This document shows positions 392-4,111 of a stretch of 4,111 bases of DNA, one piece after another. The DNA is from a virus. Its lineage: Duplodnaviria > Heunggongvirae > Uroviricota > Caudoviricetes. The translations under genes and the position numbers were made by a program. The notes under the pieces were generated by a model. The model had not been told where the DNA came from. It made no database searches and saw only the letters and a program-made list of their open reading frames with translations. Within the stretch, counting starts at the first letter, position 1; every line of letters starts with the position of its first letter. The stretch lies in IMG/VR virus record IMGVR_UViG_2695420687_000011. The stretch is one strand, 5' to 3'.

Positions 392-443
392 TCTGACAGC
401 TTTCACGTACCACTCAGGCTGTTTTTCCACTTTCCAGTGATGC

Positions 444-704
444 TTACCCACGGCTTACCTCCTTTTCCTGTGGTTTTAACTCATTCCGGTTTTGATTAGA
501 TTGAAAGCGGGCAGGATAGAGAATCTGCATTTCGCTGATTTCTCCCTTAAAAAAATTGGCCAGACGCTCTGCCAGATCGATAGATGGAATTTGTTCCAGT
601 CTCTCAATACGACTCAGCGTCGCTGGATTAACCTGAACACCCGCAGCAACATGCTGCAAAGTAAATCCGTGCGCCTTACGCACATTTCGTAATGGTGATT
701 GCAT
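444..704 (-). CDS. Cro-like HTH transcriptional regulator (XRE family), 86 aa
   Basis: ATG at RC 702-704 preceded by SD GGAGG (RC of 709-713) with a 4-nt spacer. HTH-like segment GFTLQHVAAGVQVNPATLSRIERLEQ. Divergent from the CI-like gene across a 97-bp palindrome-rich region. TAA stop at RC 444-446. Confidence 0.8.
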   Translation of the reverse strand: MQSPLRNVRKAHGFTLQHVAAGVQVNPATLSRIERLEQIPSIDLAERLANFFKGEISEMQILYPARFQSNQNRNELKPQEKEVSRG

Positions 705-801
705 ATAACCTCCACATATTGCGTGATAAGCATATTATTTAACGCAAATATTTTGCGCAAGTTGATTTGCTTAACGCGCAATAAAGAAATGTAATAAACG
801 C
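705..801. promoter_or_regulatory. Divergent promoter/operator region between the Cro-like and CI-like genes (OR-like)
   Basis: Palindromes read directly: TTGCttaacgcGCAA (767-781), CGCAAAtatTTTGCG (743-757), TTGCGCAA (753-760), imperfect TTGCgtgataaGCAt (719-733). Candidate leftward promoter: -35 TTGCGC (RC of 755-760), 17-bp spacer, -10 TAATAT (RC of 732-737). Candidate rightward -10 TAATAA (792-797) would start the repressor mRNA at or near its ATG. Promoter calls are by eye only. Confidence 0.6.
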
Positions 802-1494
802 ATGAACATAGGAAATCGAGTCAGACAACTTCGCCAGGCGAAGAACATGAAAATCGCCGATCTCGCTGAAGCAATAGGAGTGGATGCGGCGAATATCTCA
901 CGCCTGGAAACAGGTAAGCAGAAACAATTCACTGAACAAGCCCTGAGTAATATTGCCAGGAGCTTAGGTGTTGATATTGCAGATCTCTTTACCTCAGACT
1001 TCAAAAGTAATACTGTATGTAAAAACAGTGCTTGTGAGGATGTTGCGCAGGTGAAGGATGTATTCCGTATTGAAATGCTGGATGTCAGTGCCAGTGCGGG
1101 AAATGGCCTTATCCAGGGCGGTGATGTCATTGATGTGATTCATGCCATTGAATACAGAACTGATAATGCTGTATCGATGTTTGGCGGACGGCCAGCCAAT
1201 CACATTAAAGTTATCAACGTTCGTGGGGACAGTATGTGTCCAACCATTGAGCCAGGAGATCTCATCTTCGTTGATGTCAGTATCAATCAGTTTGATGGAG
1301 ATGGTATCTATGTATTTGGTTTTGATGATAAAATTTATGTCAAACGACTGCAAATGATACCTGACAAACTACTGGTGATTTCTGATAACCAGATTTACCG
1401 TGAATGGGGAATTACCAGCGAAAATGAACACCGGTTTATGGTCTTTGGAAAGGTCTTAATCAGCCAGTCACAAACCCTTAAGCGACACAATTAA
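802..1494 (+). CDS. CI-type phage repressor: N-terminal HTH (XRE) plus C-terminal S24 LexA-like autopeptidase domain, 230 aa
   Basis: N-terminal HTH pattern NIGNRVRQLRQAKNMKIADLAEAIGVDAANISRLETGKQ. S24 catalytic motifs present: GDSM with Ser144 (codon 1231-1233), Lys181 in VKRL (codon 1342-1344), candidate Ala99-Gly100 cleavage bond (1096-1101). TAA stop 1492-1494. No clear SD upstream, consistent with a leaderless or weakly initiated message. Confidence 0.9.
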   Translation: MNIGNRVRQLRQAKNMKIADLAEAIGVDAANISRLETGKQKQFTEQALSNIARSLGVDIADLFTSDFKSNTVCKNSACEDVAQVKDVFRIEMLDVSASAGNGLIQGGDVIDVIHAIEYRTDNAVSMFGGRPANHIKVINVRGDSMCPTIEPGDLIFVDVSINQFDGDGIYVFGFDDKIYVKRLQMIPDKLLVISDNQIYREWGITSENEHRFMVFGKVLISQSQTLKRHN

Positions 1495-1514
1495 CCCTTA
1501 CCTCCTCATCAATT

Positions 1515-1539
1515 AGCCACCCGAAGGTGGCTTTTCATT
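1515..1539 (+). terminator. Candidate rho-independent terminator after the repressor gene
   Basis: Stem AGCCACC (1515-1521), loop CGAA, stem GGTGGCT (1526-1532), followed by TTTCATT. Lies 21 bp after the repressor stop. Confidence 0.5.
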
Positions 1540-1549
1540 ACCCATTAAA

Positions 1550-1602
1550 TTGCATATCTCGCAACAAAAACACTTGCATAATGCGCAACTTCATTTTATC
1601 TT
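1550..1602 (+). promoter_or_regulatory. OL-like tandem operator palindromes with candidate rightward promoter
   Basis: Two 15-bp TTGC-N7-GCAA palindromes, TTGCATATCTCGCAA (1550-1564) and TTGCATAATGCGCAA (1574-1588), centres 24 bp apart, same half-sites as 767-781. Candidate promoter -35 TTGCAT (1574-1579), 17-bp spacer, -10 TATCTT (1597-1602); weak match, by eye. Confidence 0.4.
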
Positions 1603-2013
1603 TCTTTCCAGACAAACAAACAAGGTACTAACAAAATTTGGTTGTAACACGGCGTATGGCACATGCGTCGTTAGCGGTCTGGGGACGTTAAAGGGGACAA
1701 TCCACTCCTTGCTCGGGCAAACAAACCAGGTAGCCGGAATGTGCAAGTCAATGATGATGCTGATAAGACGCCTAACCAGCGTCGCGATTCGGTTTGACGC
1801 CTGGGAAGAGACCAGGGTGCAACGATGAGGGCATTTATGGAACCGCGACAAAGTGTGGTGCCGTAACTGGCTAAGTGCTCTCAGCGTTGTGGTAATCCGC
1901 GAAATGGCGCGGCGGTAAGTATGGCGGGGTTATTCCTTCCCCGTTGAGGACACCGGGTTGTCAGGTTGACCATACGCTTAAGTGACAAGCCCACCACAAC
2001 AGCCACTGCTTTG

Positions 2014-2060
2014 GCGGTACCAGTTTGTACACTTGCTTCCGGCTGGTACCGCTCTTTTTA
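2014..2060 (+). terminator. Terminator-like hairpin: 10-bp stem with T-tract
   Basis: GCGGTACCAG (2014-2023) pairs with CTGGTACCGC (2043-2052) around a 19-nt loop, followed by TCTTTTTA (2053-2060). The loop is long for a classical intrinsic terminator. Confidence 0.4.
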
Positions 2061-2148
2061 CAAAACAGAGAAGAGCATCACCGGACGACGGGCTCATAAC
2101 CCAATCCACCCGGGCGGCTGCCACCGCAGGTGCTCTTCTCTGTTTTGT
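2060..2148. repeat. Perfect 18-bp inverted repeat flanking a 53-bp GC-rich spacer
   Basis: ACAAAACAGAGAAGAGCA (2060-2077) is the exact reverse complement of TGCTCTTCTCTGTTTTGT (2131-2148), verified base by base. Sits 36 bp upstream of the yfdP-like SD. Function unknown. Confidence 0.85.
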
Positions 2149-2196
2149 GGAGAAACCAACCGACCTTGCAGGGTCGATATGATGAGGAGCAGCAAA

Positions 2197-2559
2197 ATGG
2201 CTAGCGAACGCAGTACTGATGTGCAGGCATTTATCGGGGAGCTGGACGGCGGCGTATTTGAAACCAAAATCGGCGCTGTTCTCAGTGAAGTCGCTTCAGG
2301 TGTGATGAACACGAAAACCAAAGGGAAGGTCTCGCTCAACCTGGAAATCGAACCGTTTGATGAGAACCGTGTGAAAATAAAACACAAACTCTCATATGTT
2401 CGTCCGACTAACCGCGGGAAAATTTCCGAAGAAGACACCACCGAAACGCCGATGTATGTCAATCGCGGTGGTCGCCTGACTATTCTGCAGGAAGACCAAG
2501 GACAATTACTGACTCTTGCCGGTGAACCTGACGGAAAACTCCGCGCAGCAGGTCATTAA
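2197..2559 (+). CDS. yfdP: YfdP-like prophage protein of unknown function, 120 aa
   Basis: ATG 2197 preceded by SD GAGGAG (2184-2189) with a 7-nt spacer; TAA stop 2557-2559. Sequence (MASERSTDVQAFIGELDGG...) and length match my recollection of E. coli K-12 CPS-53 YfdP; not verified by search. An alternative start at ATG 2179 (AGGG SD at 2170-2173) cannot be excluded. Confidence 0.8.
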   Translation: MASERSTDVQAFIGELDGGVFETKIGAVLSEVASGVMNTKTKGKVSLNLEIEPFDENRVKIKHKLSYVRPTNRGKISEEDTTETPMYVNRGGRLTILQEDQGQLLTLAGEPDGKLRAAGH

Positions 2560-2624
2560 TATCGTTCTTAATTAACTGATTATTTATCTCATCACTGAAT
2601 ATCCTTATATAGTGAGGACTTATT

Positions 2625-3449
2625 ATGTCTCAGAACTTAGACGCAACCGCAATTAATCAAATCCATGCCCTTATTTCTGCTCAGGGTGTTAATGAAATTA
2701 TTAGTAAGATTGGTGCCGATGCTGTGGCATTGCCTGAGAATTTCCGCATTCATGATCTGGAAAAATTTAATTTAAATCGCTTCCGTTTCCGTGGTGCGCT
2801 TTCCACTGCCAGCATCGATGACTTTACCCGTTATTCTAAAGATCTTGCAGATGAAGGCACCCGCTGCTTTATCGATGCCGATAATATGCGTGCCGTCAGT
2901 GTGCTTAACCTGGGTACTATTGATGAACCAGGTCACGCAGATAACACCGCCACTCTCAAACTGAAAAAGACAGCACCGTTCTCTGCTCTGTTGTCTGTTA
3001 ATGGCGAGCGTAACTCCCAAAAGTCACTGGCAGAATGGATTGAAGACTGGGCCGACTACCTTGTGGGCTTTGATGCTAATGGTGACGCCATTCAGGCAAC
3101 CAAAGCGGCTGCGGCGATCCGTAAAATCACAATTGAAGCGAACCAGACCGCTGATTTTGAAGACAATGACTTCAGCGGCAAACGCTCCCTGATGGAGTCT
3201 GTCGAAGCGAAGACCAAAGACATTATGCCAGTGGCATTTGAATTTAAATGCGTTCCGTTTGAAGGCCTGAAAGAACGTCCGTTTAAATTACGCCTCAGCA
3301 TTATCACTGGCGATCGTCCTGTACTGGTTCTGCGCATTATTCAGCTGGAAGCGGTGCAGGAAGAAATGGCTAACGAATTTCGTGATCTGCTTGTTGAGAA
3401 ATTTAAAGACAGCAAAGTAGAAACCTTTATTGGTACTTTCACCGCCTGA
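2625..3449 (+). CDS. yfdQ: YfdQ-like prophage protein (DUF2303 family), 274 aa
   Basis: ATG 2625 preceded by SD GAGGA (2614-2618) with a 6-nt spacer; 274-codon ORF with TGA stop 3447-3449. Sequence ([21 protein letters not shown]...) and length match my recollection of K-12 YfdQ; not verified. Confidence 0.85.
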
Positions 3450-3461
3450 TTTCATTACTGC

Positions 3462-3483
3462 AAATGCCCCTGCGGGGGCATTT
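3462..3483 (+). terminator. GC-rich hairpin between yfdQ-like and yfdR-like genes (terminator or mRNA stability element)
   Basis: AAATGCCCC (3462-3470), loop TGCG, GGGGCATTT (3475-3483): 9-bp stem whose A/T ends give a short T-run (CATTTAT). Begins 13 bp after the yfdQ stop. Confidence 0.3.
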
Positions 3484-3576
3484 ATGGAAACATAATTTAC
3501 TCAATAATCGCCGGATGGTGAGGGCTTCCTTTTACCAGAATTCAGCGCGGTGCAGCGCATATACGTGGAGAACAAA

Positions 3577-3936
3577 ATGTCATTTATTAAAACTTTTTCC
3601 GGGAAGCATTTTTATTATGACAAGATAAATAAAGACGACATCGTTATTAACGATATCGCGGTTTCCCTTTCAAATATCTGTCGCTTTGCAGGACATCTTT
3701 CACACTTCTACAGCGTCGCCCAACATGCGGTGCTTTGCAGCCAGCTGGTACCGCAGGAATTTGCTTTTGAAGCGTTAATGCATGATGCAACAGAAGCATA
3801 TTGCCAGGACATCCCCGCACCACTGAAACGCCTTCTTCCTGACTATAAACGGATGGAAGAAAAAATAGACGCCGTAATCCGTGAGAAATACGGGTTACCT
3901 CCTGTTTGCTGGTTAATCAGGCAGTTACCGGCATAG
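3577..3936 (+). CDS. yfdR: YfdR-like HD-domain protein, apparently 3'-truncated (119 codons; the K-12 protein is longer as I recall)
   Basis: ATG 3577 preceded by GGAGA (3566-3570). HD-superfamily signature H...HD present (GHLSHFYSVAQH, ALMHDATEAY), but the ORF ends 9 codons after KYGLPPV (CWLIRQLPA then TAG at 3934-3936), before the distal Asp expected in HD domains. Sequence character changes near 3906. Confidence 0.7.
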   Translation: MSFIKTFSGKHFYYDKINKDDIVINDIAVSLSNICRFAGHLSHFYSVAQHAVLCSQLVPQEFAFEALMHDATEAYCQDIPAPLKRLLPDYKRMEEKIDAVIREKYGLPPVCWLIRQLPA

Positions 3937-4111
3937 TTCCAGATCATCTTGATTGGAACATCCAGCTTATCTTTACCACGAACACCGTCACGCAGCGCCG
4001 TCATCTCCGGGCCGCGTTCAATCGCATCGGTCCACATAAACATGGAAATGCTGGTCTGGATCGGATTCTCGAGAGTAGGCATACGAACAAACGGTAAGCT
4101 GTATGAACCTT
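3843..4111 (-). CDS. C-terminal part of an unidentified minus-strand ORF entering from beyond the right edge
   Basis: Minus-strand frame is open from 4111 to the stop at RC 3843-3845 (...GSYSLPFVRMPTLENPIQTSISMFMWTDAIERGPEMTALRDGVRGKDKLDVPIKMIWNYAGN...). Its last ~21 codons are antisense to the yfdR-like 3' end. Product not recognised. Confidence 0.45.
   Translation of the reverse strand, partial: GSYSLPFVRMPTLENPIQTSISMFMWTDAIERGPEMTALRDGVRGKDKLDVPIKMIWNYAGNCLINQQTGGNPYFSRITASIFSSIRL

Follow-up and report, generated by a model that had tools for sequence, protein, structure and literature searches.

The DNA considered here raises the question of whether a family of short palindromes, found on both sides of a phage repressor gene, is the operator set of an immunity switch, and through which proteins and promoters such a switch would act. 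The window, by which we mean the whole analysed stretch of 4,111 nucleotides, corresponds to the immunity region of a remnant lambdoid prophage. It is highly probable that this region works as the remnant's immunity switch and that dyads of the form TTGCR-N5-YGCAA are its operators. The motif, its enrichment, the conservation of its positions and its overlap with conserved promoter-like hexamers are observed directly.

The central 3.5 kb of the window (392-3906) has about 98% identity to a lambdoid prophage of hundreds of E. coli genomes. A phage search with 444-1640 returned the Stx2 phages 1720a-02 and Stx2a_1447/WGPS2 together with phage mEp460 at 96-98%, Shigella phage SfII at 89.5%, Salmonella ST64B at 74% and Klebsiella prophages at about 70%. 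The complete prophage in E. coli O55:H7 CB9615 has the order lysis genes, Q, replication genes, ymfL, cro, cI, yfdP, yfdQ, yfdR, yfdS, integrase. Bases 1-383 of the window resemble opgE (90.6% identity to E. coli), its final 205 bases resemble dmsA (92.7%), and a run of N lies at 384-391; these flanks and the run of N suggest that the prophage part is a short remnant or a scaffold join and that the host is not a typical E. coli. The genes of the prophage part are as follows.

444..704, minus strand: cro-like gene, 86 aa, HTH_3 (domain search)
709-713, minus strand: Shine-Dalgarno sequence of cro, GGAGG
802..1494, plus strand: cI-like repressor gene, 230 aa, with N-terminal HTH, linker and S24 self-cleaving domain (Peptidase_S24; domain search)
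2197-2559, plus strand: yfdP, early-left gene
2625-3449, plus strand: yfdQ, early-left gene, DUF2303
3577-3906, plus strand: yfdR, early-left gene, truncated

The preliminary description of this DNA had assigned the repressor and its divergent neighbor correctly, as the 230-aa product carries HTH and Peptidase_S24 domains and the 86-aa product an HTH. The residues needed for self-cleavage of CI (Ala99-Gly100, Ser144 and Lys181) are present and conserved across the family. Two phage records annotate a shorter cI that starts at Met16, which we think is a wrong annotation. The ATG at 802 is not preceded by a Shine-Dalgarno sequence, and the first 15 CI residues are conserved across the family. 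The cI mRNA is predicted to be leaderless, with the PRM start at about the A of this ATG.

The exact pattern TTGC-N7-GCAA is present three times in the 4111 bases of the window, between cro and cI and twice downstream of cI, and has no other match there. Only 0.14 matches are expected by chance, an enrichment of about 20-fold, and none of 200 shuffled sequences held three or more. Three 15-bp palindromes with the same outer half-sites, the downstream two spaced 24 bp centre to centre, had been noticed beforehand from the sequence, and both statements are borne out by the exact matches that start at 767, 1550 and 1574. With one mismatch allowed, the sole extra site is 719-733. The one-mismatch class is not enriched by itself (4 found against 2.9 expected), and it is therefore solely through its conservation in relatives that 719-733 is validated. 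The stretch 717-783, which spans both upstream sites, is a 75% inverted repeat centred on 750. The sites and the predicted signals around them are listed below; those without a strand are dyads.

669..683: weak palindrome GTGCGCCTTACGCAC, operator-like, within cro at its 5' end, weight-matrix score 6.8
719..733: operator OR-A (OR1-like), TTGCGTGATAAGCAT, one-mismatch copy, conserved in relatives
732..737, minus strand: predicted PR -10, TAATAT, conserved as TAa.AT in the alignment (own reading)
760 to 755, minus strand: predicted PR -35, TTGCGC, with a 17-bp spacer to the -10
746..760: weak third OR operator position, of which the window has only the right half-site GCGCAA (755-760); the left half reads AAAT
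767..781: operator OR-C (OR3-like), TTGCTTAACGCGCAA, exact match, conserved
767-772, plus strand: predicted PRM -35, TTGCTT, the left half of OR-C (own reading)
790..795, plus strand: predicted PRM -10, TGTAAT, conserved as TgtAAT, 17 bp past the -35 and separated from the cI ATG by 6 nt
1515..1536, plus strand: intrinsic terminator of cI, AGCCACC-CGAA-GGTGGCT then TTTT (stem 1515-1532 and T-run)
1550..1564: operator OL1, TTGCATATCTCGCAA, exact match, conserved
1574..1588: operator OL2, TTGCATAATGCGCAA, exact match, conserved
1574-1579, plus strand: predicted PL -35, TTGCAT, the left half of OL2 (own reading)
1597..1602, plus strand: predicted PL -10, TATCTT, 17 bp after the -35, in a conserved TTAt..T block, with the start at about 1609 (own reading)

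Conservation of these sites was followed in the cro-cI region and the post-cI stretch of 4 annotated phages and 22 genomic loci (26 distinct), which were found by CI alignment. Their repressors range from 97% to 39% identity, and they come from about a dozen enterobacterial genera (Shigella, Citrobacter, Salmonella, Klebsiella, Kluyvera, Buttiauxella, Trabulsiella, Pantoea, Mixta, Rosenbergiella, Dryocola, Proteus, Serratia and Phaseolibacter). Almost all 26 loci have TTGC-N7-GCAA with at most one mismatch at -83 and -35 from the cI ATG, OR-A itself being found at -83 in all 26, and the spacing from OR-A to OR-C is 48 bp in 24/24 distinct OR regions. The downstream pair lies about 54 and 77 nt past the cI stop codon in 20 loci, with OL1 and OL2 22-24 bp apart; seven relatives, possibly including some decayed prophages, have no recognisable OL pair. 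Information content is about 2 bits for each of the four outer bases on either side and 0.2-1 bit in the centre, so that the inner bases drift; R is favoured at position 5 and Y at position 11, which gives the consensus TTGCR-N5-YGCAA. A motif scan of related phages had been suggested as a check. When a weight matrix was derived from 65 distinct sites, exactly the four operators came out on top in the window and in the complete genomes of mEp460 (44.5 kb) and ST64B (40 kb), and exact matches elsewhere in these two genomes are near chance numbers. Motif density in IMG/VR loci is no neutral background, because these loci were chosen through the leader element described below and often belong to the same phage family.

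OR-A overlaps the predicted start of PR (about 725) and the final two bases of the predicted PR -10. Its 3' end is GCAT in almost all relatives, its mismatch being a fixed one, and in our reading the T of this GCAT is a base of the PR -10. The predicted PR start falls near the centre of 719-733 and is followed by GGAGG and the cro ATG. On the strength of this sequence conservation, 719-733 is a genuine fourth operator.

The region between OR-A and OR-C is less simple. The weight matrix finds no full site there in the window. The 8 bp at 753-760 are a perfect palindrome (TTGCGCAA), and the slightly longer block 753-763 (TTGCGCAAGTT) is nearly invariant, with at least 90% conservation in relatives; 753-760 is best read as the predicted PR -35 together with one half-site of a weak third operator. 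Roughly half of the relatives have a moderate operator in the 15-mer that closes with GCGCAA (window frame 746-760), and its left half there is TTAC, TTGT, TAGC or TGGC. The imperfect palindrome at 743-757 (CGCAAATATTTTGCG), whose half-sites are oppositely oriented, was considered as a middle operator and rejected, as it is conserved in the closest relatives only and does not belong to the operator family. The "related palindromes" that the preliminary description listed at 719-733, 743-757 and 753-760 are thus all present, but only the first is an operator in its own right. With these corrections the analogy drawn there to lambda OR and OL holds, since the same motif is found at both loci and is conserved by position and by half-site.

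Another member of the series may lie within cro. Most relatives have a strong TTGCG-N5-CGCAA site, e.g. TTGCGATTTTCGCAA, within the first cro codons, where the window has the weak palindrome at 669-683. The intra-cro site scores 13-21 in most other genera as opposed to 6.8 here, it is always 50-52 bp from OR-A, and it is retained even where the encoded amino acids differ.

PR, PRM and PL are predicted promoters, namely our own reading of conserved promoter-like hexamers. The -10 hexamers predicted for all three are conserved at fixed distances; the predicted -35 elements match the TTGACA consensus at 3/6 positions only. A simple consensus promoter scan listed none of the three and proposed a different plus-strand site at 711-738. 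Downstream of cI, the stem of the terminator shows compensatory changes among relatives, and the operator pair beyond it overlaps a conserved promoter-like -35/-10 directed at yfdPQR. This position past the terminator and on promoter-like hexamers indicates an OL/PL-like unit separate from the cI transcript.

Two proteins, the CI-like repressor and the Cro-like one, most likely share the dyads as their targets. Helix 3 of CI (DAANISRLETGKQK) is nearly invariant across the family, and its residues AANISRLET align with PATLSRIER in helix 3 of Cro. More distant repressors with other helix-3 sequences (HK639, PhiR26_1, BTP1, HK022 and e14) are flanked by different repeated palindromes: the HK639 dyad is ATAAC-N4-GTTAT, that of PhiR26_1 is AACC..GGTT, and those of HK022 and e14 are GTAC-based. 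The e14 repressor YmfK was examined as a possible family member and rejected, having a different HTH, different operators and no LexA box. For Cro there is also structural modelling. The Cro dimer of 1720a-02 was modelled by AlphaFold3 on 20 bp located 20-39 nt upstream of cI, and Cro was also modelled on a site of phiNP 12 nt upstream of cro; in both models Arg32 contacts one guanine per half-site (bioRxiv 10.1101/2025.01.01.630987). In window coordinates the 1720a-02 site is 763-782, so it contains OR-C, and the phiNP site is equivalent to OR-A. The same work used a lux fusion to the phiNP control region, which showed early lytic-gene expression that was lower with 1720a-02 co-resident (bioRxiv 10.1101/2025.01.01.630987). 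Sequence comparison finds both OR sites in each of these two phages, and their common operator specificity may be a simple reason for the reported cross-regulation. Literature searches with the motif written out, and for the operators of ST64B, SfII and mEp460, returned nothing beyond this 2025 preprint (bioRxiv 10.1101/2025.01.01.630987); no paper was found that defines the operator set or CI binding, and the preprint's modelled Cro sites were the only ones located.

The dyads have to be weighed against other readings. They could be sites for Cro only, or for another phage regulator (YmfL/CII-like), with CI recognising some other sequence; the sole published modelling does concern Cro, and CI and Cro are just 25% identical over the HTH domain. 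We regard this as quite improbable. Both proteins have the same helix-3 core, A-x-(I/L)-S-R-(L/I)-E, and no other repeated conserved motif is common to the divergent region and the region past cI. For CI to repress PL in a lysogen it must have sites there, and no conserved dyad other than the OL pair is found at PL. In studied lambdoid phages, CI and Cro use the same operators, which again counts against sites reserved for Cro. It is extremely unlikely that the matches arose as a side effect of promoter -35 elements (TTGCxx) and of the AT-rich make-up of intergenic DNA, with no protein dedicated to binding them. The right half-sites (GCAA/GCAT), which are no promoter elements, are as conserved as the left ones at about 2 bits per base. 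The coincidence of three left half-sites with predicted -35 hexamers, and the lack of enrichment of one-mismatch matches, do fit such an origin; OL1 and OR-A, however, lie off any -35, the spacing of OR-A and OR-C is invariant, and the excess of exact matches over chance is as given above.

A further reading concerns the downstream pair, which might belong to the 3' end of cI as an RNA hairpin or termination signal, or be a host-factor site, with yfdPQR transcribed from elsewhere. The pair sits past the terminator hairpin and its T-run, and the -35 inside OL2, the 17-bp spacer and a TAnnnT -10 are conserved across genera in a copy of the OR-C/PRM geometry. Upstream of yfdP there is no further conserved promoter-like element, and e14 and HK022 have their own operators at the same place. 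In favour of this reading are the promoter scan list, which has no promoter at 1574-1602, and the fact that PL would be followed by a 590-nt leader with a terminator-like hairpin. On balance we consider this reading very improbable. The dyads are, very probably, the predicted sites through which CI and Cro would control three promoters.

In the switch proposed here, we infer the binding protein, the order of occupancy, cooperativity and any looping between OR and OL. OR-A would cover the start of the rightward promoter PR, which would drive cro, and the conserved half-site at 755-760, between OR-A and OR-C, would lie on the PR -35. OR-C would lie over the -35 and spacer of PRM, the promoter for maintenance of cI, and the PRM transcript would begin at or next to the cI ATG. 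Past the cI terminator, OL2, 24 bp from OL1, would cover the -35 and spacer of PL, and transcription from PL would cross the long structured leader to reach yfdPQR. PR and PL would be kept off in a lysogen by CI dimers on OR-A and on OL1/OL2, and at higher CI concentration OR-C would be occupied, so that CI would limit its own production. Once CI had cleaved itself in response to SOS, Cro would occupy the operators, with a probable preference for OR-C, and would turn PRM off.

Much of this arrangement resembles lambda. cI and cro are divergent, one dyad operator family serves the divergent region and the early-left promoter, neighbouring sites are about 24 bp apart (here the OL pair), the cI transcript is leaderless (here by prediction), and the C-terminal S24 domain of the repressor, with its Ala-Gly, Ser and Lys, is of the self-cleaving type. 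Unlike lambda, the operator has a different sequence and is 15 bp long; where lambda has three sites at each of OR and OL, OR here has a half-site besides its two full sites, and OL has two sites. OR and OL are about 820 bp apart here, compared with 2.4 kb in lambda. The window also lacks rexAB, the N gene and nut sites, and it has two additional features, an operator-like site within cro and a LexA box within the cI gene. The middle site is not at the distance from PRM that it has in lambda, and with only two full OR sites, positive autoregulation of PRM cannot be assumed. The operator set is thus a variation on lambda and confirmatory in kind, with an operator sequence that was previously not fully written down.

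Other switches can be compared in the same way. The 933W switch, reportedly the lambdoid Stx-phage switch described by Tyler, Mills and Friedman in 2004, is said to have an OL with only two operators; its repressor specificity and operator sequence are reportedly unrelated to those of the window, and 933W is said to have an N gene. The CI of HK022 has a C-terminal domain clearly homologous to that of the window CI, whereas its HTH differs and its operators have a GTAC core unlike the window's. Phage 1720a-02 has the same immunity type as the window, with DNA about 98% identical, and was described with one modelled site per phage; CI, the four-site family, the OL pair and the presence of both OR sites in each of the two phages are not described there (bioRxiv 10.1101/2025.01.01.630987).

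Two further elements of the window, a structured element in the PL leader and the LexA box in cI, are more surprising than the operators themselves. Their coordinates are as follows.

1011..1030: LexA (SOS) box TACTGTATGTAAAAACAGTG, in codons for the poorly conserved CI inter-domain linker
1603..2196, plus strand: non-coding leader of about 590 nt from PL to yfdP
1635-1835, plus strand: conserved structured element of the PL leader, in which the stems covary and some blocks, GGTAGCCGGAATGTGCAAG among them, are invariant
2014-2058, plus strand: terminator-like hairpin in the PL leader
2060-2148, plus strand: hairpin with a 25-bp stem in the PL leader

On its plus strand, the stretch from PL to yfdP has no annotated gene, its listed ORFs show no gene signs, and neither N nor nut was found. 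The leader folds unusually well (z = -3.98). Within the element at 1635-1835, 96% of pair cells pair, and sliding the partners lowers this share to 18-38%; double-change cells number 116, and the observed score was reached by 0/500 shuffles. The element has no Rfam match, and Rfam scans of the window and six related loci gave no family for the leader or operator regions, with tRNAs found in the relatives only; ARAGORN likewise found no tRNA in the window. The element is present in at least 120 viral contigs. It lies directly past tRNA-Ile(CAU) and before ban in P1-like phages and about 54 nt before tRNA-Arg(UCU) in Uetakevirus phages, and a tRNA adjoins it in 22/60 loci. A covariance model was also used to look for kinship with known leaders: the model, R1, of the element had no match in the put RNA (putL, putR) of either HK022 or HK639, and a relationship to the ST64B-type leader was rejected in the same way. 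HK022 likewise lacks N and carries a structured RNA immediately downstream of PL (PMC9378689), and relatives are reported to lack N (PMC3851460). For phages without N, a cis-acting antitermination role of the leader element is a reasonable guess.

The LexA box consists of a CTGT-N8-ACAG dyad with an AT-rich centre (1013-1028, CTGTATGTAAAAACAG) and is of consensus grade. It is intragenic, 212 nt into cI, rather than at a promoter, and inspection found no conserved -35 beside it on either strand. The box is found across a dozen genera: a CTG-N10-CAG box at the same reading-frame position is present in 25/27 family loci, and also in all 23 further metagenomic viral loci that bear the OR-C/PRM signature. 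The codons that form it are nearly fixed (Thr71 is ACT in 23/23 genes, Val72 GTA in 21/25 and Ser76 AGT in 23/24), while elsewhere in cI conserved Thr, Val, Ser, Leu, Arg, Ala and Gly positions are written with three to six codons. Such fixed synonymous codons are evidence of selection on the DNA itself. The SfII version of the box, TACTGTATATAAAAACAGTA, is identical to what we take to be the umuDC box. The box was found only in the repressor family of the window and is absent from the repressor genes of BTP1, HK639, PhiR26_1 and e14; that of HK022 has merely a GC-rich CTG-N10-CAG match. LexA at 1011-1030 could block or gate transcription inside cI, or could control an intragenic promoter. We tentatively suggest, at slightly less than an even chance, that the LexA box is a second, direct SOS input to the switch and that the element at 1635-1835 is the missing early antitermination device of the N-less phages. 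If so, cleavage of LexA would alter cI or cro expression independently of CI self-cleavage.

The immunity type described here is carried by the Stx2-converting phages 1720a-02 and Stx2a_1447/WGPS2 and by the Shigella serotype-converting phage SfII, and is also found in Salmonella ST64B and in many Klebsiella and Citrobacter prophages. Knowledge of the operator set provides defined targets for reporter and footprinting work, and the compact repressor/operator pair is usable for engineering. A known operator set also allows immunity groups to be predicted, as well as cross-repression between co-resident prophages, such as the interference of 1720a-02 with phiNP.

The start of the repressor gene cI is annotated in two ways among the related loci. 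Two phage records, one of them Stx2 phage 1720a-02 (L033 and L034, 3404-4051 in each), begin cI at Met16, corresponding to 847-1494 of the window, whereas the RefSeq annotation of E. coli O55:H7 CB9615 places the start at the ATG equivalent to 802. Use of Met16 would remove helix 1 of the helix-turn-helix. Because the N-terminus is conserved and a leaderless start is predicted, the sequence favours the ATG at 802 over Met16 as the probable start of cI.

Within the linker codons of cI lies a consensus-grade LexA (SOS) box, TACTGTATGTAAAAACAGTG, at 1011-1030. Its reading-frame position is the same in 25 of the 27 loci of this repressor family and in all 23 further viral loci. The half-sites of the box are fixed at synonymous positions, with Thr71 always encoded by ACT and Ser76 almost always by AGT. 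No box of this type was found in the other repressor families compared. An operator-like dyad, GTGCGCCTTACGCAC, is also present in the first codons of cro (669-683). This dyad is weak in the window and is a strong TTGCG-N5-CGCAA site in most relatives, and its distance to OR-A, the operator at 719-733, is always 50-52 bp.

The leader downstream of the predicted early-left promoter PL contains further elements. A direct repeat, CAAACAAAC(A/C)AGGTA, occurs in two copies 105 nt apart (1613-1627 and 1718-1732) where the predicted PL transcript begins. A conserved structured element spans 1635-1835; its stems covary, it belongs to no Rfam family, and at least 120 viral contigs carry it. Elements of this type are found directly 3' of tRNA-Ile and 5' of ban in P1, P7 and SJ46, and immediately upstream of tRNA-Arg in Uetakevirus phages. 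The 3' portion of the leader (~2050-2160) is common to SfIV, ST64B and LLS, and two hairpins lie shortly upstream of yfdP:

2014-2058, terminator-like hairpin with a 10-bp stem (GCGGTACCAG/CTGGTACCGC) followed by TCTTTTT
2060-2148, hairpin with a 25-bp stem, directly after the terminator-like hairpin

A different conserved motif, AACAGGCAGGACGCCCACGAAGTAGCC...GATGATTCG, lies 3' of PL in a number of immunity types, e14 among them, and suggests a second exchangeable leader module. The motif is located as follows:

L165 (E. coli K-12 e14), downstream of ymfK
L003, L005 (phiNP), L010, L013 and L015, after PL
L002, farther downstream

The prophage part is flanked by sequences resembling host genes, opgE at 1-391 and dmsA at 3907-4111, with identities to E. 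coli of 90.6% and 92.7%, respectively. The prophage genes at the two edges are incomplete, ymfL being truncated at 392 and yfdR at 3906, and a run of N occupies 384-391. The prophage part is thus a 3.5-kb remnant of a prophage or else the product of a scaffold join, and its host is divergent from typical E. coli.

Sequence comparison of phiNP and 1720a-02, the two phages treated in the 'bully phage' preprint, showed that they share one operator family, which each carries at OL and at both of its OR sites. Therefore, the CI of either phage, and not Cro alone, may act on the other.
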